Positions 15,155 through 29,222 of a stretch of DNA of 64,000 bases are shown in pieces. The translations under genes were made by a program, and so were the position numbers. Where the stretch lies: IMG/VR virus record IMGVR_UViG_3300010049_000001, positions 1,510 to 65,509 of that record; one strand, 5' to 3'. The DNA is from a virus. Its lineage: Duplodnaviria; Caudoviricetes. The notes under the pieces are model-generated. The model did no database searches, was not told the DNA's origin, and saw only the letters and a list, made by a program, of their open reading frames with translations. Each line of letters opens with the position of its first letter. The stretch's first letter is position 1.

Positions 15155-15560
15155 TTTCTTGGACTACAACATCGATATGTGGTCTATTGCTATAGATTTT
15201 CCAACAGTTTCCATACCCGATGATTTGCCCGTCGTCTGTCCAAACTACTCCATTTAGTGCATCTTCGATGCCCTTCATGAAGTTGGACATGTCTGGTTTA
15301 CCCATAGCATGAATTAAACCATTAGCTGCAAGCTCTTGGAGTTTCTTTGACCAGGACTTTGGTATAGCTTTATGAACTACGACTGATAATATAATCGGGC
15401 CTGTTATTGGTTTGAAACCTGGAAGCATTTCCTTTGCCATATGCTTCATCCACTTCTCAAATTCTCTTGTCTTTTCTGGGGTATAGGCATGCCCTTTACC
15501 AAAGCGAGGACGACCTTTAGCAACAGGTTCTAGATCAAAATAGAGTTCGAGTGTTTTCAT
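15147..15560 (-). CDS. rusA: RusA-like Holliday junction resolvase
   Basis: PVAKGRPRF, KPDMSNFMKGIEDALNG, WTDDGQI. Confidence 0.88.
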   Translation of the reverse strand: MKTLELYFDLEPVAKGRPRFGKGHAYTPEKTREFEKWMKHMAKEMLPGFKPITGPIILSVVVHKAIPKSWSKKLQELAANGLIHAMGKPDMSNFMKGIEDALNGVVWTDDGQIIGYGNCWKIYSNRPHIDVVVQEIT

Positions 15561-17572
15561 TTACATGCTCCCCAATTTGGACCACAAGAACCGTCTACCT
15601 TAACTGGAATACTTAATTGAATAGCCGTTTCCATAATATTTTGCATCTCATCGAAAGCTTGATCCATATCACCTGGATCACTAAAGCCAAGCTCATCGTG
15701 AACAGTAAGGCGTGGAACCCCAGTCTCATCGAATACACCATCCTCCCAACATTGTAGCATAGCTTTTTTAATAAGATCGGCTGCGCTACCTTGAAGTCTA
15801 CGGTTGAGTCCACGATAACTGTAGGCTCTTACCACCCTTCCATATTCAGAACAAGCTTGTTCATAAGGCAAAGGCGGACGCGGATCATGTTTATCGGGTG
15901 GTTCCCATAAGTCAAAACGTGACCGCCGCCCAAGGATTGTAGTGATAAATCCATATTGTCTAACCAAGTCAGAACAATGATCCATCGTCTTGGTTGCGAA
16001 AGGAACTGCTGCATGGTACGCTTTGTGTAGTTGCTTTCCTGCTGCCTCAGATAGATGCAAACTTCGAATCAACTTTGGAATACCCATTCCATAGATCATT
16101 CCAAAGTTGATATTCTTAACCGGCTTGCGCCAGTGCTTACGCTTCTCAGGTGTAGAAACATCCCAATCTACGTTAGGAAGGATAAGATCCATTGCCCAGT
16201 CATGATAATCAGTATCCGGATGATCTCGGAAATGCTTTCTTGCCTCGTCACTGCCAGGACCAACAGCGAAGTGAATAAGAAAACGATACTCAATTTGACT
16301 ATAATCGTAAGCACGCCATTGTTTATGTCCATAATCTGGTATAAAAATTCCTCTAATGAGTGGTGCCAGTTCATCATCCCGTGCCGGTACATTCTGTAGA
16401 TTCGGATCCGATGATGAGAACCTACCTGACCTAGCTCCTCCATCATCCATTGCTAGCTGCTTGAATTGACAATAGACTTTACCATCAATATGCTTTCCAA
16501 GGATGTATGATTTTATAAAAGTCCCATTCAGTTTGGAAAGACGTCTTATATTTAGAATTGATTTTGCTATTGGATGACTAGTCCCTTCTAAAAAATCTTT
16601 TGTAAAGCTTGGTTTACCATTCGGATTTCCTTTTGTAGGTTTTGTTCTTGGATAAACTAACCCAGCTGCATCAAATACTCTTGCAAGATCAGCACTAGCA
16701 TTTACATTAACTGGACTTCGAGCAAGAATATCTAACTCATCCTGACATTTAGTTAGTTCTATATCAAGATGCCCAGTAAGTTCTTCTGCCTTTCCTACAT
16801 CTACTGACACCCCAGCGAAACGCATCTCTATCATAAGATAAATAAGCGCGCATTCCATATCAAATAGTTCGACTAAGTTTTCCTGCTCAAGCAAAGGCCA
16901 TTGCTTTTCAAGAATTCTCAGTGGAAGATCAACATCTCCCTCTGCATAAGGTCCAACTAATCTTGGAGGGGCTCTCCAGATGTTCTCTCTTTGGTCATGT
17001 TTGTCACCACCATAGAATCTCCAGCACCAATCATAAAGAAGATTGGAAGTTTTACCTTCCCCGCAATATTTTTCTCCAAGTAACTCCAAATTATTGTTTC
17101 CCCGTTCCTGAAGTAAAGCCTCAGCGTACTGAACATCATATAATCTCCCACGAACATGGACGCCTTCTTGACGAAGCCACCCTATATCGTAAGTTAAATT
17201 TGCACCAACCTTTGGTTGATGTGGATTGCTTAGTGCTTCATTCAACCATTGGAACACACGTTTTGAATCGAGATTGTACTCTGGTTCGATAGTATGTCGT
17301 ATTGGAAAGTACCACCTTCTCCCATCTGGAGTGCCTACAGACACGCCAACGATATGCCCCTTTCCTTTCGCCCAGCCTGGACCACCTGTTACCAATTCTG
17401 GATCATATGTTTCTGTGTCGATTGCTATACATGGTGCGTTGCCCAGGTTTGGAAATTCAATAGGAGTTCGCCAGAAGGTATCCGGAATCGGAGGTTGTAC
17501 CCTACTATAGGAACCACGAGTTCCCTCAGCTGGAAGATCTTCCCAGAAGAAACCTACCGAATCAGCTCTCAT
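15557..17572 (-). CDS. DNA polymerase, family A, with 3'-5' exonuclease and no 5'-3' exonuclease
   Basis: IAIDTET, ARSGRFSSSDPNLQNVP, motif A DYSQIEYR, motif B KNINFGMIYG, motif C TVHDEL. Confidence 0.95.
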   Translation of the reverse strand: MRADSVGFFWEDLPAEGTRGSYSRVQPPIPDTFWRTPIEFPNLGNAPCIAIDTETYDPELVTGGPGWAKGKGHIVGVSVGTPDGRRWYFPIRHTIEPEYNLDSKRVFQWLNEALSNPHQPKVGANLTYDIGWLRQEGVHVRGRLYDVQYAEALLQERGNNNLELLGEKYCGEGKTSNLLYDWCWRFYGGDKHDQRENIWRAPPRLVGPYAEGDVDLPLRILEKQWPLLEQENLVELFDMECALIYLMIEMRFAGVSVDVGKAEELTGHLDIELTKCQDELDILARSPVNVNASADLARVFDAAGLVYPRTKPTKGNPNGKPSFTKDFLEGTSHPIAKSILNIRRLSKLNGTFIKSYILGKHIDGKVYCQFKQLAMDDGGARSGRFSSSDPNLQNVPARDDELAPLIRGIFIPDYGHKQWRAYDYSQIEYRFLIHFAVGPGSDEARKHFRDHPDTDYHDWAMDLILPNVDWDVSTPEKRKHWRKPVKNINFGMIYGMGIPKLIRSLHLSEAAGKQLHKAYHAAVPFATKTMDHCSDLVRQYGFITTILGRRSRFDLWEPPDKHDPRPPLPYEQACSEYGRVVRAYSYRGLNRRLQGSAADLIKKAMLQCWEDGVFDETGVPRLTVHDELGFSDPGDMDQAFDEMQNIMETAIQLSIPVKVDGSCGPNWGACK

Positions 17573-18522
17573 CTTAATCCCATGATAGCACCATCAAGAT
17601 CATCTCCAGTGAATAAACAACCTGCTGGATAAGCATAGAAGTCGATGGTGTGTATAACATTCTCAAGCTTGAGAAGGTAACCAAGATTGAACTTTGGACC
17701 AGCTAAGACAGGAAAATCAGCTTCGGCATTGACATTCAAACCACTACACAAAGCGATGCGCCCGTCTTCAAAGATAATGTCGTCGCCAGTGCTCATTGTT
17801 CTAAGCTGATTGATCGCTTGGAAGAAACCATCTGGAACAGGTTTCTGGTTTGATTGTTTATCCAGGATTCGATTTATATCTGGCCAGTCACCTACAAACA
17901 ATAGAGAGCATAACCATTTATCCTTTTGATAATGAAACGCAACCTTATTTCGTTTCTCTGAGATTTGTATCCATTCGACCGGTTCATTGATGCGGATCAA
18001 TTCGTCTACTGTATCTTCAGGAAGGATTATTGAAAAAGGTATCTCGGTTAAGAGATTCTTTCTAACAATAATAGAGTTGTTCGTAGCCAGCATGTGAATT
18101 CCATCCAGCTTAATACCCGTTGACCATCTACGAGACGCATCTTCACTAATAAATGGTCGGAGTTGTTTCAACCCTTTTAGAAACCTAGCTGGATCGACTT
18201 GATAGTAATTGCCTTCTGGCATAAGTGCCTGTATTGAGTTTACCGTCTGTTCAACGTAAGCCCGGTACCTTCCAGACTTTACCGTCAACTTGCCACCTGC
18301 TGTCATAGATAAGGTAACTTCTTCACTACAAGCACGAATAGCTCGTAAGAACGAATCCCCTTTCGGAGAGGCTTCAATCGTTGTATCGATCGGATGCTGT
18401 AATGAGAGCTGCCCATTGTAGGCATACACTGCGCCGCCGCCAATACGAACATGGGTAAGCCCTTGATTCGTAAAATCTTTTTTGGCTATCCCGCCTTGGA
18501 TGAATCGTAGAGCTTCAAGCAT
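17569..18522 (-). CDS. DNA polymerase III beta-clamp-like protein
   Basis: 317 aa; LEALRFIQGGIAKK, AYNG, L..LRPFIS...SRRWSTGIKL...ATNN, P.LF....GAIMGLR pattern of phage beta-clamp homologs; GGAG SD. Confidence 0.8.
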   Translation of the reverse strand: MLEALRFIQGGIAKKDFTNQGLTHVRIGGGAVYAYNGQLSLQHPIDTTIEASPKGDSFLRAIRACSEEVTLSMTAGGKLTVKSGRYRAYVEQTVNSIQALMPEGNYYQVDPARFLKGLKQLRPFISEDASRRWSTGIKLDGIHMLATNNSIIVRKNLLTEIPFSIILPEDTVDELIRINEPVEWIQISEKRNKVAFHYQKDKWLCSLLFVGDWPDINRILDKQSNQKPVPDGFFQAINQLRTMSTGDDIIFEDGRIALCSGLNVNAEADFPVLAGPKFNLGYLLKLENVIHTIDFYAYPAGCLFTGDDLDGAIMGLR

Positions 18523-18600: not shown

Positions 18601-19512
18601 TCATTCGAAGAACCCCATCTGGCTGGCTTTAAAAGGATGATCTGGTATGTCATTCATTGCATCGAATGCCCAACAATTATAAGCCCATCTACTAAAATAC
18701 TGCTCGCGTACCCTCTCAGGATCAAAGCCCTGTTCCCTGAGCATATTGGATGCCGCTTCGCTTTGAACATCACAGTATGTATCGAGATGCGAATTCTTTT
18801 TCTTAGCCGTTGGACTCTTAGAAGATACATTTAACAGCCCACGGCCAGGCACATAAAGCATACCGAAGGCAGCATTCTGTACCCATGTGGATGAGTCAAC
18901 GCTATGCCATGGATACCTTGTGATAAGTTCTATAGTGGTCATACCAAAACCGTGTACTTTGATCTTCGGATGACCTGCACCATCAGTGAGATATTTATCC
19001 CATATCTGATCGAGCCAATGGTAGAGTTGCTTGGTTGAAATAGGAACCATACCGCCGATGGTGATATAAGAATAGTTTTTCATATAGTATTCTAACCATC
19101 TAATGTCCTCGCCATAGTGATAGCAAGGCAATGGACGAACACCAAGCCATTCCATATGCTGCTGATTGTTGTAGGTTCCGAGCGGGTCACCAATAGCATC
19201 AAGCACTGATGCTAAGAGAACACCATCTTCTTGTTTGATAAGATCCCAGTTCTGTTTAATGTACTCACAATAGGCTGGAAGGTCAACTAGGATACCTTTT
19301 GTAAATGAAGAGTACGCCCCTGAATCGAGAAAAACTTTTATATTATCATCTCGAATTGTATCTACATACCGTTGCTTATTGATATAGTGATAGGACTCGA
19401 GATAATGACGAACACCATCGCGGGCGTATTTTTCCCTTCCGTCAAGTTGGGCATAGAGCTGACCCAGTTTGTGGAAGTTAGAAGTATAGATACCCGCGAG
19501 ATATACATTCAT
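18601..19512 (-). CDS. dpdA: DpdA-like 7-deazaguanine DNA transglycosylase (TGT fold)
   Basis: FLDSGAYS, LDAIGD, PCYHYGE, GGMV, HGFG, SVDSSTW; last gene of a fol/que cluster. Confidence 0.85.
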   Translation of the reverse strand: MNVYLAGIYTSNFHKLGQLYAQLDGREKYARDGVRHYLESYHYINKQRYVDTIRDDNIKVFLDSGAYSSFTKGILVDLPAYCEYIKQNWDLIKQEDGVLLASVLDAIGDPLGTYNNQQHMEWLGVRPLPCYHYGEDIRWLEYYMKNYSYITIGGMVPISTKQLYHWLDQIWDKYLTDGAGHPKIKVHGFGMTTIELITRYPWHSVDSSTWVQNAAFGMLYVPGRGLLNVSSKSPTAKKKNSHLDTYCDVQSEAASNMLREQGFDPERVREQYFSRWAYNCWAFDAMNDIPDHPFKASQMGFFE

Positions 19513-19577
19513 AGGAACCAGTTATAGCAGCAACCGATGGCACTACCAATCATAAATCCCCAGCCAAAATCAATCAC
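19509..19577 (-). CDS. 22-aa hydrophobic peptide coupled to dpdA (not in ORF track)
   Basis: GGAGGA SD, GTG start overlapping the upstream TGA, MIDFGWGFMIGSAIGCCYNWFL*, TGA overlapping the dpdA ATG. Confidence 0.45.
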   Translation of the reverse strand: MIDFGWGFMIGSAIGCCYNWFL

Positions 19578-19828
19578 GACATTCCTCCCCTTCTTCTTGT
19601 AGCTTTTTCTTTTAATTCTTCTATCCCAGTATGCATAGTCTCAAACAAACTCGAATCAGGATGTTGTAGATATATCATAAATGTCTCGAAGAGTGCTGCA
19701 ATCAACATAATTCTGTGATCGACAGATACTACTTCACCTAGCTCTTTGAGGTCTACTTCTACAAGTGTTCCTTCTTTACTCACAACCAATACTTTATCGG
19801 ATGAGGCTTTGTCGTTATCTTTCATCAC
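19574..19828 (-). CDS. Hypothetical protein in the modification cluster
   Basis: 84 aa, overlaps both neighbours by 4 nt. Confidence 0.6.
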   Translation of the reverse strand: MMKDNDKASSDKVLVVSKEGTLVEVDLKELGEVVSVDHRIMLIAALFETFMIYLQHPDSSLFETMHTGIEELKEKATRRRGGMS

Positions 19829-20721
19829 TTATGCTCCAGACTTGCGAAGAACTCTGCACGAACCTCTGGCCTCTCATATTTGCCACGGATAGCACAGTAG
19901 GTCATGTCCATCTTCTGTTTGTTAACTCCCCTGCTACATGCGCACATGTGCCGACCAGTGATGAAAACGATAACACCATCCGTCTCATTGGTTTTCCAAA
20001 TCTCTTCAGCGACCTGTTCCGCTATACGTTCTTGAGTTTGGAAGCGTCTTGCAAACTTGTCAACGACTCGTGGGAGTTTACTGAGACCGATAACTTTTCC
20101 TTTTGCAATGTAGCCCACGTTGACTTCCCCAAAGAACGGCGCCATGTGGTGCTCACAATGGGAGTAGTATTCGATTCCGCGGACAATAATTGCGCCACTA
20201 CATGCTGCCAAGGCATCATCTTCGAACACCTTTAGATTTACATCCTGACTGTATCCTACAAACCATTCCTTCCATGCTTTGGCAGCACGGGTAGGTGTTT
20301 CTAACATGCCAGGACGAGTTGGATCATCGCCTGCAAATTGAATGAGGCGTCGGAAGTTGTCTTCGATAGAACTTTCTTCGGTTCCTTCCCATGGAAAGAT
20401 ATACCATGTCGGATCATTTAGATACTTTCCTTTTCCTTTATCCACAAGAGCGAAGAAAGGTTTAAAATAGTTATCGAAGTACTTTTTCTTTGTTATTCCA
20501 GAGTCAATAATATCATCAATGAATATGGTTGCTTCGCTCGCATTCTGAACAATAGAAGCACTCTCAAGTCTTTGAGCTACTTGATATGCTGGAACTATCC
20601 CACCACGAGGAACTCCATATAACTTATGATGTCCTCTTCCAAGATTATGATGGATATGATTTGCCACATCATCGGCTAGTTCTTCGCACTCAAGCAAAGT
20701 CAAAGATCTTATTCGATTCAT
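19825..20721 (-). CDS. folE: Type I phosphoribosyltransferase domain fused to GTP cyclohydrolase I
   Basis: N-terminal YGVPRGG, IDDIIDSGIT, WYIFPWE; C-terminal ETPTR, YSHCEHHMAPF, GLSKLPR, QTQERI, HMCACSRGV. Start revised to ATG 20721 after GGAGGTG. Confidence 0.9.
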   Translation of the reverse strand: MNRIRSLTLLECEELADDVANHIHHNLGRGHHKLYGVPRGGIVPAYQVAQRLESASIVQNASEATIFIDDIIDSGITKKKYFDNYFKPFFALVDKGKGKYLNDPTWYIFPWEGTEESSIEDNFRRLIQFAGDDPTRPGMLETPTRAAKAWKEWFVGYSQDVNLKVFEDDALAACSGAIIVRGIEYYSHCEHHMAPFFGEVNVGYIAKGKVIGLSKLPRVVDKFARRFQTQERIAEQVAEEIWKTNETDGVIVFITGRHMCACSRGVNKQKMDMTYCAIRGKYERPEVRAEFFASLEHK

Positions 20722-21179
20722 CTCACCACCTCCGTATAGCACTTGGAAGTTTCTTCTACACGGACAGAAACAAGTTCGACCTCGGTATAGTCCTTGAGAA
20801 GATAGTTTCCATTCCCAAGAAGATATGAAGCCATGTTCTCAGCTGTAGGATTGAAAGGAACCCATACAATTGACCTTCTCAATAGAAGACCGCCTTCGCG
20901 ACCTTCCATGACTGAGTTTATCCGGATCATATCCGGATCTTCATTCCAGATAAGAGTTTTATGATCCCAGTTATCTTCCAGCCATTGGCAAAGGACAGAC
21001 TTCATTACTGAAAAATCAAGTACCCTTCCAACCTCATCAAGCATACGAACCGCTGTTACACCGAACGTAATCTTGTATCTGTGACCATGTAGGTGTTCGC
21101 ACTTCCCACCTTGACCGACGACCCGATGGCCGCAGTCGATTTCATGTGAGCGATAAGCTATCGGTAGATTTGAGTTCAT
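20718..21179 (-). CDS. queD: 6-carboxytetrahydropterin synthase
   Basis: CGHR, CEHLHGHRY, LDFS, WDH, PTAEN, VEETSK; start revised to ATG 21179. Confidence 0.9.
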   Translation of the reverse strand: MNSNLPIAYRSHEIDCGHRVVGQGGKCEHLHGHRYKITFGVTAVRMLDEVGRVLDFSVMKSVLCQWLEDNWDHKTLIWNEDPDMIRINSVMEGREGGLLLRRSIVWVPFNPTAENMASYLLGNGNYLLKDYTEVELVSVRVEETSKCYTEVVR

Positions 21180-21945
21180 TCTCGCACCTTTCTTGATAGA
21201 GATTGGATTGTTCCAAGAGAATGTTTGCGAATCGCAACTCATTCCCTTCGAAGTTTATTTCTCTTTGAGCTCTGTCCCACAGAATAGCAGGATCAGGAAT
21301 ACCGGCATCAGCAAAACCTTTAGCACGAAGAGTCGCTGCTGCATCAGTTCCGATAACCTCACCAGAATAACTAGTTATAGAATGTGCAAGAGCATAATAA
21401 AGCAATGGATTTTGCATCGCATACTCTGCCTCTTCTTTTTTTGACCAAGTCATTAGAGGGGTTACAATCGAAATCCTTGCATAGTCACCAGAGTTAAATA
21501 GCCCCCAGTTGCTAGCAGCTTGGATAGAATCAATAAATGTCGCCCTACAATCTGGGTAACCGCTGTAGTCAACTTGGCTTACTCCAATGATAATTTGCTG
21601 ACAACCAATAACTACAGCTCTATTATAAGCAACAGTTAGAAAGAGTTGGTTTCGCATCGGAACAAAGGTGTTCGCTACTCCACCTTTATATTCTTCTAAT
21701 GGCAGTTCATGTTGAAGAAGAGGAGAGAGTCCATGCAGAACATTATCTACATTGATAACTTCATGTGAGTCAACTTGGAGGATATGTGCGATCCTTTTTG
21801 CTGCTTCGATTTCAGTTCGATTTCGTTGACCATAGTCAAAGGTAATTGCATGAATGCTATCGAAGTTGTCAAGGTGCCTTGCCATGTATAGACAAGTGGT
21901 AGAATCTTGCCCGCCTGAAAGAATCACTAATGCTTGTCGTGTCAT
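21142..21945 (-). CDS. queC: 7-cyano-7-deazaguanine synthase, variant lacking the Zn cysteines
   Basis: LSGGQDSTTC, FDYGQR, VPMRN, YSGYPDCR, TPL, LRAKGF. Confidence 0.9.
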   Translation of the reverse strand: MTRQALVILSGGQDSTTCLYMARHLDNFDSIHAITFDYGQRNRTEIEAAKRIAHILQVDSHEVINVDNVLHGLSPLLQHELPLEEYKGGVANTFVPMRNQLFLTVAYNRAVVIGCQQIIIGVSQVDYSGYPDCRATFIDSIQAASNWGLFNSGDYARISIVTPLMTWSKKEEAEYAMQNPLLYYALAHSITSYSGEVIGTDAAATLRAKGFADAGIPDPAILWDRAQREINFEGNELRFANILLEQSNLYQERCENELKSTDSLSLT

Positions 21946-21947
21946 GA

Positions 21948-22652
21948 TTATCTCATCCCGAGAAGTTTATGGGTTTGAATACTGACCTTCCAACCTCTTA
22001 AAGCTGCTTCAGTTATAGCAAATTCTAAATTATCTATTCCAGGTTCCGGTTGTAGAAAAACTTCCGTACTCAAAAGCCATTCTTTATCAAGAAGTTCTAC
22101 TGGACTTATATTTCCAAGGACAAAGTTAAAATCTTTTTCTGGTTTAGTCACGATAAATTTTATAGCTGTTGCTTTCTTAATAGCATCTTCATGTATTCTT
22201 GTTTTTGGGCTGACCACTATATGTAAATTTGGTTGATTTTTTATTGGAATTGGTAGTGATCCATTTGTTTCAAATTGTACCACAAACCCATGAGCAAGTA
22301 AAGCATTTGCGAGAGGAGTTACATTCTGATGGAATGGCTCACCACCAGTAATAACTACAGTTCTATATTCTGGATACTCTATGAGGATACGATTTTGGAT
22401 TTCATACACACGTAACGATTCAAGATTAGAAGTGTAATCTGTATCGCAGCGCGGACATTGTAGATTGCATCCATAGAGACGAATAAATACCGCAGGTGTT
22501 CCACAGAGCGGACCTTCAAATTGTACAGAGGCGAAGATCTCCATGACATAAAGATTACCTTCTGGGTGCATGAAGGCCTTAACTGGTCGTTGCTTATTCA
22601 TTTCGGGCTCACTGTAGTAGAAGCGCTTTACGTTATCGCCCAACGGGTTCAC
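21948..22652 (-). CDS. queE: 7-carboxy-7-deazaguanine synthase (radical SAM)
   Basis: EIFASVQ.EG, FIRLYGCNLQCPRCDT (CxxxCxxC), ITGGEP, ETNG, VSPK, LQP, SIQTHK. Confidence 0.92.
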   Translation of the reverse strand: MNPLGDNVKRFYYSEPEMNKQRPVKAFMHPEGNLYVMEIFASVQFEGPLCGTPAVFIRLYGCNLQCPRCDTDYTSNLESLRVYEIQNRILIEYPEYRTVVITGGEPFHQNVTPLANALLAHGFVVQFETNGSLPIPIKNQPNLHIVVSPKTRIHEDAIKKATAIKFIVTKPEKDFNFVLGNISPVELLDKEWLLSTEVFLQPEPGIDNLEFAITEAALRGWKVSIQTHKLLGMR

Positions 22653-23140: not shown

Positions 23141-23989
23141 TTAACTCCACGGGTTTGAGGATGTTACGCTTGAGTCATCCGTCGGCTCGGGTGAGTCAAA
23201 ACCGTTTGACTTAATAGAATTGTCTGTGATAGTTTGGTCATTGTCACTAGTGTCTTCTTTATTATTTAGATTACCTTTTTGATTACTTAGCAACCATTTT
23301 CCAAATTGGACTTGTGCTGTAGCTGGATTGATATTCTGAGAAGTACACCTAACAATTACTTCTTTCTTAAGACTACGAAGTTCTTGGTTAGGATATAGGA
23401 GTCTCACTTCATCAGCGATTGCCCATACATTACCTGTTGCTGTGCCTGCCTTTGGTCTGCCAGGAATCCCGCCGTTCTGCCCTTGTGTGACACGACCGCC
23501 CCCTTGCCTTTGTGAGGACATTGCCCTTGCCCCACCACCCCGTGTGCCTTGTTTTACGGGGTATTGGATTTCCGGAACATCCTTCGGATTAAGCGGTATC
23601 ATATCTTGTGCTAGCTTACTACAAATAGCACACATAGTAGCATAATCAAGGTCACCACAATCAGTCCCCACGGTATTCCAGTGGAGAGTCCGAAGGTCAT
23701 TCTTCTCGAATGAAGAAAAGGTATGGGATCGTTCGAGTGGTCCAATAATGATGGACTCAACTGGGATTCCAACTTCTCTTCCATATCCATAGACTGTTGC
23801 ATAGCTTCCTGTTCCGATAAAGGTAAGCTTGCGCTTATCAATTCCGACCCAGCGAGTTGAATTTGTAGTCTTTTCATGCTCCTGTGGGAGCGGGTTGTGA
23901 TGTTCACCAAAGATCTCCCCAGTAGGATCGGATGGATGTCTTCCGCGAAGAACATTTATCACAGAAGGTTCGTCAGGTTTGGTGGTCAT
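23141..23989 (-). CDS. Hypothetical protein with C-terminal paralog-2 domain
   Basis: NVWAIADE...KKEVIVRCTSQNINPATAQVQFGKW. Confidence 0.65.
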   Translation of the reverse strand: MTTKPDEPSVINVLRGRHPSDPTGEIFGEHHNPLPQEHEKTTNSTRWVGIDKRKLTFIGTGSYATVYGYGREVGIPVESIIIGPLERSHTFSSFEKNDLRTLHWNTVGTDCGDLDYATMCAICSKLAQDMIPLNPKDVPEIQYPVKQGTRGGGARAMSSQRQGGGRVTQGQNGGIPGRPKAGTATGNVWAIADEVRLLYPNQELRSLKKEVIVRCTSQNINPATAQVQFGKWLLSNQKGNLNNKEDTSDNDQTITDNSIKSNGFDSPEPTDDSSVTSSNPWS

Positions 23990-28399: not shown

Positions 28400-28632
28400 T
28401 TCATACTCCTATTAAGTAGATACAACTTGGCTTGCTCAAGAACCAACATTTTATTGGCAAGCGGTGAGGTGGAAGATACGATATGTGTTATACCGTTCTC
28501 ATATGTTCCCGCAAGGAGTACTACAAAATCACGGGAAGTGTTTTCGTCATTTGCTTTGAAGGTTTCAATAGCCATCTCTTGAGTGACTTCCTTCGCAGCT
28601 TCGAAAGGAAATGTAGTTATACTAGCAGTCAT
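28396..28632 (-). CDS. Hypothetical protein
   Basis: 78 aa, AAGGA SD, coupled to both neighbours. Confidence 0.65.
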   Translation of the reverse strand: MTASITTFPFEAAKEVTQEMAIETFKANDENTSRDFVVLLAGTYENGITHIVSSTSPLANKMLVLEQAKLYLLNRSMK

Positions 28633-29222
28633 GTATTATATTCCTTTAGAAAGATTTCGATGAAAACTTCCTTGGCATGAGTCTCATGTGGGAGTTCAAT
28701 ACGCCGAGGATGCACTACAACATCTTTGAGACATTCCCATTCGTGATTGAAGGGCAGCAAGAAGTGTTTGCGTTCATAGGCTAGTGCCGCCAGGTCAACC
28801 TTATCGACAAAAATCGGTTGGATACTTTTCTTGTCAATAAGGAAAGCGTCATAGATTGCCAGCTGAATTCGACCTTCTATCTCTTGATAGTCAGGCAACG
28901 AACGCTTGAGCGGACGAACTACATCACCAATAAAAGCCTCGGCCGCATCATGAAGAAGCAAAGCAAGAGTAGTTTCCTTGGTGAGTTTGATGTCCCGGAT
29001 GACTGCAATCTCTTTTCCTAGACGGTAGCAGAGAATGCTATGTTGCGCCACCGAATAGAATGCTTTGGTATGTCCATTGAACCTACACTGGAATGCAAGC
29101 GCGTGAGCGATTTCATCGATTGTGTAGTCATACTTTTTTGGTTCGTCGAAGTAGAACTTCTGTCCAGACCAGGTTGCAATCCAATCACCCATTCTTTCCT
29201 CCGGTTGAACGCAGACACTCAT
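28629..29222 (-). CDS. HD-domain nucleotide phosphohydrolase (YfbR-like)
   Basis: IAHALAFQCRFNGH, YSVAQHS, LLHDAAEAFIGD, DLAAL. Confidence 0.9.
   Translation of the reverse strand: MSVCVQPEERMGDWIATWSGQKFYFDEPKKYDYTIDEIAHALAFQCRFNGHTKAFYSVAQHSILCYRLGKEIAVIRDIKLTKETTLALLLHDAAEAFIGDVVRPLKRSLPDYQEIEGRIQLAIYDAFLIDKKSIQPIFVDKVDLAALAYERKHFLLPFNHEWECLKDVVVHPRRIELPHETHAKEVFIEIFLKEYNT

Follow-up and report, generated by a model that had tools for sequence, protein, structure and literature searches.

Here we examine a 64,000-nucleotide stretch of DNA from a virus of the Caudoviricetes (IMG/VR record IMGVR_UViG_3300010049_000001), hereafter called the window, which makes up nearly all of one 65.5-kb virus record, and in it a gene at 19825-20721 of the minus strand that encodes a short phosphoribosyltransferase domain fused to GTP cyclohydrolase I (FolE). 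The N-terminal domain is confirmed as a type I phosphoribosyltransferase (PRTase) core, a distant, Gpt-derived relative of the xanthine-guanine PRTase (XGPRT) Gpt, and the phage family to which it belongs most likely consists, as far as the sequences tell, of loop-less mini 6-oxopurine PRTases dedicated to FolE. Tentatively, and with somewhat less than even confidence, we propose that this mini-PRTase makes GMP from guanine and phosphoribosyl pyrophosphate (PRPP), recycling the by-product of the DNA guanine transglycosylase DpdA towards the substrate of FolE.

Taken as a single sequence, the domain scores 17.4 bits with the Pfam model PF00156, under the gathering score of 26.3, and phmmer against the PDB gives a weak E of 0.3. 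PF00156 is found at E <=0.001 in six of 60 longer relatives, and one homolog has it precomputed. The single-sequence evidence is therefore weak and the PRTase call needs profiles or folds, with which it stands well clear of chance. A profile made from the alignment of 23 fusion homologs retrieves the E. coli and Yersinia XGPRTs from the PDB (E 2e-7 to 2e-6; profile positions 3-113, chain residues 5-142) together with the Pyrococcus purine PRTase 1vdm (E 4.5e-6), and hhalign against E. coli Gpt gives a probability of 96.7% (E 3.8e-10), collinear over Gpt residues 4-141. The AlphaFold2 (AF2) model of the lone domain, based on a 68-sequence alignment, reaches a predicted local distance difference test (pLDDT) of 95.3 and a predicted template modelling score (pTM) of 0.88, with strands at residues 4-6, 31-36, 54-57, 66-72, 89-94 and 106-108 and helices at 9-27, 42-49 and 76-85. 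Foldseek against the PDB yields 72 matches at E <=0.001, headed by the 6-oxopurine PRTases 4jls, 4jit, 1a95 and 5xtk at E of about 1e-6 (best 7.8e-7). Independently of Foldseek, VIA-align was run over 48,161 chains; its best match, at Z 12.2 with 114 of 118 residues aligned, is Yersinia XGPRT, followed by Sulfolobus hypoxanthine-guanine-xanthine PRTase (HGXPRT), a ppGpp-bound Neisseria PRTase-like protein, the Pyrococcus PRTase and Helicobacter pylori xanthine-guanine-hypoxanthine PRTase (XGHPRT), at Z 11.6 to 10.9; altogether, twelve PRTases spanning residues 1-118 are found from Z 12.2 down to 8. An earlier note on this DNA, made from the letters alone, had named a non-PRTase fold, from hidden Markov models (HMMs) or structure prediction, as the outcome that would speak against it, and the profiles, AF2, Foldseek and VIA-align all returned the PRTase fold. 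The only NCBIfam PRTase model matched is that of Gpt, NF006613. Its cut-off of 138 bits, which E. coli Gpt exceeds with 266 in that run, is not reached by the 25 bits of the N-terminal domain, which is therefore not a Gpt ortholog.

The fusion gene and its parts are the following.

19825..20721, minus strand: whole fusion gene, mini-PRTase plus FolE (open reading frame, ATGA overlap, GGAGG; full-length AF2 model with pLDDT 89.7)
20386..20721, minus strand: mini type I PRTase core, residues 1-112 (hhalign, AF2, Foldseek, VIA-align Z 12.2)
20599..20610, minus strand: pyrophosphate (PPi) loop, P38-R39-G40-G41 (conservation in the 23 fusion homologs; Gpt alignment)
20491..20526, minus strand: PRPP-binding motif, I66-F-I-D69-D70-I-I-D73-S74-G75-I-T77 (conservation; Gpt alignment)
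20437..20439, minus strand: K95, lysine for the 6-oxo group (and N7) of the base (at least 90% in the fusions; aligned to Gpt K115)
20386..20406, minus strand: W106-Y-I-F109-P110-W111-E112, segment of base stacking and of N1/O6/N2 contacts (conservation; Gpt alignment)
20368..20385, minus strand: flexible linker, residues 113-118, GTEESS (pLDDT <50 at residues 114-116)
19828..20367, minus strand: FolE domain (GTP cyclohydrolase I), residues 119-298 (PF01227; NF006825, NF006826; Foldseek 1wm9)
20146..20157, minus strand: FolE C189-E190-H191-H192, zinc and catalytic motif (C189 and H192 invariant; E190 and H191 at least 90%)
19942..19950, minus strand: FolE H258-M-C260, second zinc ligand and catalytic His (C260 invariant; H258 at least 90%)

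In the alignments to E. coli Gpt (hhalign, MAFFT), the PPi loop P38-R39-G40-G41 corresponds to Gpt S36-R37-G38-G39, V37-G41 lying directly after strand 31-36, and the PRPP-motif residues D69, D70, D73, S74, G75 and T77, on strand 66-72 and the next loop, correspond to Gpt D88, D89, D92, T93, G94 and T96. K95 occupies the place of Gpt K115, the O6 lysine, and W106 that of the stacking aromatic Gpt W134; W106-E112 as a whole aligns to Gpt W134-I-E-Q-P138-W139-D140, so that P110-W111-E112 stands for P138-W139-D140. Conservation was assessed in three sets, comprising 23 fusions, 68 mixed members and 28 standalone members. P38, G40 and G41 are invariant and R39 is kept in at least 90% of the 23 fusion homologs, in which W106, F109, P110, W111 and E112 are also invariant; in all three alignments D69, D70, G75 and T77 are invariant, and D73 and S74 are kept in at least 90%. 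The three motifs singled out in the earlier note fall on these elements, YGVPRGG being residues 35-41, IDDIIDSGIT 68-77 and WYIFPWE 106-112. Residue roles are those of 6-oxopurine PRTases in general, rather than of Gpt in particular: the acidic pair binds Mg2+ (and ribose), the D-T-x-x-T loop binds the 5'-phosphate, the lysine reads O6/N7 and thereby chooses 6-oxo over 6-amino bases, and the aromatic residue stacks on the base (PMC5081515). All these residue classes are kept, invariant or nearly so, in the three sets, a sign that purifying selection maintains a site for PRPP together with a 2-amino-6-oxo base. The domain is about 40 residues shorter than Gpt. It has lost the Gpt segment from ~58 to 78, a hairpin with the mobile catalytic loop II, where ~8 residues now join strands 54-57 and 66-72, and about eight residues of the hood (Gpt ~124-131). 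In 6-oxopurine PRTases, loop II closes over the active site and sequesters it at the transition state (PMC5081515, PMC6783271).

In its C-terminal half the protein is an intact FolE of the ordinary kind. PF01227 covers residues 119-294 (E 4.8e-57; 192.7 bits vs 27 in Pfam), and the NCBIfam FolE subfamily models NF006825 (183.9 bits vs a cut-off of 174) and NF006826 (180.1 vs 162) are both exceeded, while the score is narrowly below the TIGR00063 equivalog cut-off (164.4 vs 181.6). In the AF2 model this half superposes on Thermus FolE 1wm9 (Foldseek E 1.8e-22, TM 0.88 on the target), the T-fold having a root-mean-square deviation of 1.9 across 183 columns. What the earlier note had described, an in-frame fusion of a PRTase-like N-terminus of ~110 aa to a complete GTP cyclohydrolase I, is thus confirmed in both halves, by the Gpt-like fold of the former and by PF01227, NF006825 and the intact CEHH (189-192) with H258 and C260 of the latter. 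The full-length AF2 model combines its pLDDT of 89.7 with a whole-protein pTM of 0.63, which points to the absence of a fixed domain-domain pose, and the linker is predicted to be disordered. In one 339-aa fusion homolog (P0012 of alignment A1) the FolE is of another type, in which CEHH reads SACSHH and a long insertion follows the first helix; more than one FolE lineage thus seems to have acquired the PRT module.

An exhaustive HMMER search with the 118-aa domain against 1.84 billion representative proteins returned 626 clusters at E <=0.001, and 45 of 60 longer members contain PF01227. At least ~300 loci were confirmed in IMG/VR; in 185,579 species genomes there were just 11 matching loci, about half of them partial matches to ordinary PRTases. 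From these counts the module appears as a large and almost purely viral family. Many members, of about 145-155 aa, are genuine standalones with a short unrelated tail at the end. Their alignment (A4) displays, after FPWE, a helix of the form ED..xR.LQ, its Arg invariant, which corresponds to FolE's first helix and precedes an unrelated second helix, and at split loci FolE retains its own copy of the first helix. The helix of the standalones could be a FolE docking element or a relic of gene fission. A search of viral contigs with the standalone-only alignment brought up mostly fusions. In 50,697 records of cultured phages, FolE is encoded in 381 and the module in 38 of these 381, and only FolE-encoding records have it; their hosts include Pseudomonas, Vibrio, Stenotrophomonas, Xanthomonas, Sphingomonas, Variovorax and Flavobacterium. 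The fusions are labelled "GTP cyclohydrolase" in GenBank, and just the standalone of the Flavobacterium phage immuto is called a phosphoribosyltransferase.

A PRT-FolE-like fusion is also present on chromosomes of Dehalococcoidia/Tepidiformaceae (Chloroflexota), among genes for carboxylesterases, Fur and a polyprenyl synthetase, with a canonical FolE elsewhere in the genome.

L146:9878-10786; L148:9932-10903; L150:9971-10891: Chloroflexota fused paralogs, on chromosomes of metagenome-assembled genomes, in a non-phage, non-que context

These paralogs have intact PRTase motifs, and in their FolE half CEHH is replaced by CERH or CEKH and, in two of the three, the His of HxC by Asn or Tyr. Because of these altered catalytic residues, they are probably neofunctionalised paralogs, and they were rejected as clean evidence for a pairing independent of DpdA. 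They show that PRTase-T-fold pairing can persist without DpdA, and do not speak to the role of the phage protein.

The gene neighbourhood was surveyed in the 80 closest viral loci with iterated local HMMs seeded from the window proteins. FolE is present in 78 of these loci, QueD and QueE in 76 each, QueC in 67 and DpdA in 71, and the module is fused to FolE in 77. Where 10-kb flanks are complete on either side, as in 21 loci, FolE, QueD, QueC, QueE and DpdA are present without exception. More than ten orders of the que and dpdA genes were seen. In each of them the PRT module is either fused with FolE or immediately upstream of it, never adjoining QueE/QueC or DpdA specifically. Two loci are split with the partners still adjacent: one (L098) has a 4-bp gap between PRT and FolE, and the other is that of the Flavobacterium myovirus immuto, an unrelated 160-kb phage with the order QueD-QueE-x-x-PRT-FolE-...-DpdA-...-QueF. 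The candidates for a module without DpdA (L042, L056, L065 and L071) were all set aside as fragments of 11-62% completeness whose contigs end where dpdA would sit. On one of them, L056 (record 62% complete), the module stands alone, and que genes are absent from the ~8-10 kb around it and from the 38 kb examined; its neighbours are genes of unknown function.

The fragment L071:1-10426 (IMGVR_UViG_3300025267_003067), 15.5 kb long and 16% complete, has the order QueD-QueE-PRT-FolE, with no QueC or DpdA in that part. Downstream lie genes for the large subunit of ribonucleotide reductase, a DHH phosphoesterase, a PurZ-like adenylosuccinate synthetase (phrog_1211, E 1e-92) and an 827-aa PolA. This phage may combine 7-deazaguanine chemistry with that of 2-aminoadenine (Z).

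In the window, the fusion gene encodes 298 aa, from the ATG at 20721 to the stop at 19825-19827. Its start is well supported, since the TGA stop of queD overlaps the ATG (ATGA) and a GGAGG at 20729-20733 lies 7 nt upstream of it. The stop in turn overlaps the ATG of a small downstream open reading frame, and the overlaps at both ends therefore make the fusion gene a translationally coupled member of an operon. The order on the minus strand is QueE, QueC, QueD, the fusion gene, the small open reading frame, DpdA, a clamp-like factor, PolA and RusA, which confirms the dpdA/que context described in the earlier note, with QueD, QueC and QueE upstream and DpdA, the clamp and PolA downstream. The same gene order is found in Vibrio phage VpKK5 (Queuovirinae), which has the same fusion, annotated only as "GTP cyclohydrolase".

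21948..22652, minus strand: queE, radical SAM synthase of 7-carboxy-7-deazaguanine (CDG) (phrog_2076 E 1.6e-38; TIGR04322 E 1.4e-26)
21142..21945, minus strand: queC homolog without the four zinc-site cysteines (PF06508 E 1e-50; TIGR00364 156.9 bits vs 150.3)
20718..21242, minus strand: queD, CPH4 synthase, translationally coupled to the fusion gene (PF01242 E 7.8e-24; phrog_2389 E 1.4e-44)
19574..19828, minus strand: small open reading frame of 83-84 aa between the fusion gene and dpdA (sequence; its ATG at 19825)
18601..19512, minus strand: dpdA, DNA guanine transglycosylase of the phage type, predicted source of free guanine (phrog_887 E 1.2e-73; VpKK5 position)
17569-18522, minus strand: clamp-like processivity factor (phrog_947 E 1.7e-47)
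15557-17572, minus strand: family A DNA polymerase, PolA (PF00476 E 4.6e-58)

The dpdA gene has the same position as the annotated gene in VpKK5 and scores just 23.5 bits with the bacterial DpdA equivalog NF041059. For the small open reading frame at 19574-19828, no family match and no homolog in the 80 related loci were found, and VpKK5 has no gene there.

The final base of these pathways seems to vary among the phages with the module. The QueC homolog of the window lacks the C..C..C..C motif, reading HSITSYSGEVIGTDAAATLRAKGF there, and is still above the TIGR00364 cut-off. Among 67 QueCs in PRT-FolE clusters, 35 have the canonical zinc site CxnCxxCxxC and 32, including that of the window, are Cys-less. 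A QueC* homolog has been proposed to stop at the amide 7-amido-7-deazaguanine (ADG) (PMC10516641); given this precedent, the window phage may carry dADG rather than dPreQ0. Moreover, the module occurs both with DpdA1-type siphoviruses (Queuovirinae type) and with the DpdA3 myovirus immuto, in whose DNA 100% of dG is replaced by fdPreQ1, at 345,000 per 10^6 nt (PMC10516641, Table 1). The presence of both QueC types and of both DpdA1 and DpdA3 means that the module is not tracking the chemistry of the final base. The constants across module-bearing phages are GTP entering FolE and guanine leaving DpdA, and every phage known to carry 7-deazaguanine encodes DpdA (PMC10516641).

These constants, which hold whatever the final base, and the fixed partnership of the module with FolE, the consumer of GTP, are among the reasons for which guanine recycling is the reading that we prefer. 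Residues 1-112 would form a Gpt-derived, loop-less 6-oxopurine PRTase tethered by a flexible linker to each FolE subunit. As DpdA puts the 7-deazaguanine base into phage DNA, one free guanine is expelled per exchange, and the mini-PRTase would join this, or any other free guanine, to PRPP to give GMP. The host kinases Gmk and Ndk would then convert GMP to GTP for use by FolE, so that, on balance, the excised guanine ring and the ribose carbons of PRPP would become the next deazaguanine base. Removal of guanine would also lower the by-product of the exchange and pull the reversible base exchange forward. With dG replaced completely, as in immuto, the guanine released would equal the whole G content of progeny DNA, and the recycling flux would be non-trivial. 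The observations are the fold, the fusion, the conservation of the residues that bind substrate and the strict linkage in the genomes; that the domain would catalyse without loop II, take guanine as its substrate and serve recycling is what we infer from them. Of the two roles that the earlier note had put forward, its guanine-recycling loop fits best with the Gpt-like fold, the base-site residues and the context, and as a function it is still something we infer.

Several points weigh against this reading. The module is absent from 343 of the 381 FolE-encoding cultured records (~90%), including the fully substituted Cellulophaga phiST and Campylobacter phages, and is therefore dispensable. With loop II and part of the hood gone, there could be little activity or none. 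Two kinase steps separate GMP from GTP, which rules out direct channelling by the fusion, and hosts normally possess their own Gpt/Hpt. A guanine sink for DpdA alone would predict fusion or adjacency to DpdA, and the strict attachment to FolE instead hints that physical contact with FolE matters. Finally, no TGT-family (tRNA-guanine transglycosylase) gene was found in two Chloroflexota genomes carrying the PRT-FolE-like fusion.

The missing hairpin also means that the N-terminal domain may only bind its ligand, a point absent from the earlier note. Such a module, holding guanine, GMP, GTP, PRPP or (p)ppGpp, could be an allosteric regulator of FolE, or a rider or stabiliser of the FolE decamer. 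Pure binding would conserve the site residues equally, and attachment to FolE in all gene orders, with 77 of the 80 loci fused, fits a contact role better than a diffusible metabolite. Against it stands the flexible linker predicted by AF2, with no confident interdomain pose; in favour of it, the FolE-like C-terminal helix of the standalones could dock them on FolE. The PRTase fold does occur in the regulators PyrR (1w30, Z 9.2) and PurR (1o57, Z 6.2) and in 5vog, crystallised with ppGpp (Z 11.5), and animal GCH1 is under the bound regulatory protein GFRP (PDB 7ala, 1is7). Nevertheless, the phage domain keeps the full set of catalytic type (the acidic Mg2+ pair and the Asp equivalent to Gpt D92), more than many non-catalytic PRTase-fold proteins do, and we know of no allosteric regulation of bacterial FolE by purines. 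We therefore regard a binding-only role as rather unlikely. Less probable again is a general purine-salvage gene, that is, a guanine/hypoxanthine/xanthine PRTase drawing a G pool from host nucleic acids for replication as well as for FolE, with no special link to DpdA. It would explain the fold and the residues just as guanine recycling does, and the standalone copy of L056 without que genes nearby and the fused paralogs of the TGT-less Chloroflexota genomes agree with it. Yet a salvage gene would be expected scattered over phage types, whereas the full que/dpdA set accompanies the module in all 21 fully flanked loci, the carriers among cultured phages all encode FolE, and the L056 record is only 62% complete. 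In a variant of this idea, the missing loop II may allow escape from (p)ppGpp inhibition: in bacterial hypoxanthine PRTase (HPRT), loop II forms the tetramer interface needed for that inhibition, and its deletion ablates pppGpp binding, the catalytic activity of the deletions not being reported there (PMC6783271).

Lastly, the domain could be a deazaguanine PRTase like TubE/ToyH, which would ribosylate CDG, ADG or preQ0 with PRPP. This would create a 7-deazaguanine nucleotide pool, and with it a second, polymerase-level route through PolA, by way of reduction and phosphorylation, or a new nucleotide signal beside DpdA. The 7-deazaguanines are also 2-amino-6-oxo bases and would fit the conserved lysine, Trp and backbone contacts. 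Nevertheless, the Asp equivalent to Gpt D92, which we take to contact the N7-H of the base in 6-oxopurine PRTases, is kept in at least 90% of members. TubE, shown experimentally to be a CDG-specific PRTase, is encoded beside FolE, QueD and QueE homologs (PMC6112128), and toyocamycin clusters include a PF00156 PRTase (bioRxiv 10.64898/2026.04.15.718813). The phage module is, however, joined to FolE and not to the base makers QueE/QueC, and it is independent of the QueC type and of the final base. DpdA, present in all 21 fully flanked loci, uses the free base, for which such a PRTase would compete, and the four contigs seemingly without DpdA are the 11-62% complete fragments described above. The nucleoside of ADG has been observed in phage CP220-infected cells, as cited in PMC10516641, and the fragment L071 pairs QueD-QueE-PRT-FolE with ribonucleotide reductase, a PurZ-like gene and PolA; in contrast, no nucleotide kinase or ribonucleotide reductase was found among the window proteins, where only a weak HD/YfbR-like match appeared, and the module is missing from the Campylobacter phages and phiST, whose DNA is fully substituted. 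Ribosylation of preQ0, CDG or ADG for use by PolA, the other role put forward in the earlier note, has thus become less likely, in view of DpdA in all 21 loci, the lack of kinase and reductase genes in the window, the FolE partner and the occurrence of DpdA in every phage known to carry 7-deazaguanine (PMC10516641), and we consider it the most improbable of these explanations, both for the enzyme and for the nucleotide pool that it would supply.

The weak match just mentioned belongs to a 197-aa protein at 28629-29222 (minus strand), whose similarity to HD/YfbR-like 5'-deoxynucleotidases is sub-threshold (21.8 bits vs 25.9) and which is the sole candidate for nucleotide metabolism in the replication module apart from the que genes. 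Between QueE and the helicase, at 23141-23989 (minus strand), a 282-aa protein matches phrog_7864 over residues 167-233 (E 3.8e-13). Its profile matched 82 open reading frames in 33 of the 80 related loci, and part of it is therefore a small domain with several copies per phage; an Atlas search yields viral hypotheticals only.

Among known systems, Gpt/XGPRT (E. coli 1NUL, 1A95-98 and 4JLS; Y. pestis 5XTK and 6KP5) has the same core fold (Z 12.2, 25% identity, Foldseek E 8e-7) and shares with the phage domain the RGG PPi loop, DD..D(S/T)G.T, the O6 lysine, the stacking Trp and the PW(D/E) segment. In contrast to these enzymes, the phage domain is almost exclusively viral, is fused or adjacent to FolE and fails NF006613, and its enzymatic activity is a prediction. 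The small PRTases of S. solfataricus (HGXPRT, 4Z1O), P. horikoshii (1VDM) and H. pylori (XGHPRT, 7KL6), at Z 11.6, 11.2 and 10.9, are free-standing housekeeping enzymes of 150-180 aa that keep the loop II region and have no link to FolE. TubE/ToyH resemble the phage domain in being PRTases encoded with FolE, QueD and QueE homologs, with a 2-amino-6-oxo pyrrolopyrimidine base and PRPP as substrates (PMC6112128). Their clusters, from Streptomyces secondary metabolism, have no nucleic-acid insertion enzyme and contain the tailoring genes GMP reductase, decarboxylase and phosphatase, whereas in the window DpdA is adjacent and these tailoring genes are absent, a distinction drawn from the cluster description. 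The Gat-QueC of phage 9g (PMC6884629) is likewise a core pathway enzyme with an added domain, a glutamine amidotransferase on QueC; however, Gat-QueC alters the end product (dG+), while PRT-FolE stands at the pathway entry whatever the end product. PyrR (1W30), PurR (1O57) and N. gonorrhoeae 5VOG have the same fold and are at least partly devoted to PRPP or nucleotide sensing, but the phage domain has no nucleic-acid-binding part and its base contacts are of the 6-oxopurine PRTase type.

The earlier note knew of no assigned function for this fusion, and our full-text literature searches likewise found no published one; in what they covered, PRTases in the clusters of DpdA phages go unmentioned, and "phosphoribosyl" is absent from PMC6884629, PMC10516641 and PMC10484667. 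As now described, the pathway comprises FolE, QueD, QueE and QueC, the tailoring enzymes and DpdA, and in the literature we did not find addressed the fate of the guanine expelled by DpdA or the supply of GTP at up to 100% G replacement. The label "GTP cyclohydrolase" hides the PRTase domain in present annotation. Present in about one in ten FolE-encoding records of cultured phages and on hundreds of viral contigs, a conserved, viral-specific and loop-less PRTase on FolE would add to this pathway a further component that has gone unnoticed. Should it be active, the pathway would close into a cycle from guanine and PRPP to deazaguanine, and the domain would be the smallest known 6-oxopurine PRTase, with loop II dispensable and perhaps given up to escape control by (p)ppGpp. 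As a sensor, it would instead be the first regulator of a bacterial-type FolE that responds to purines.

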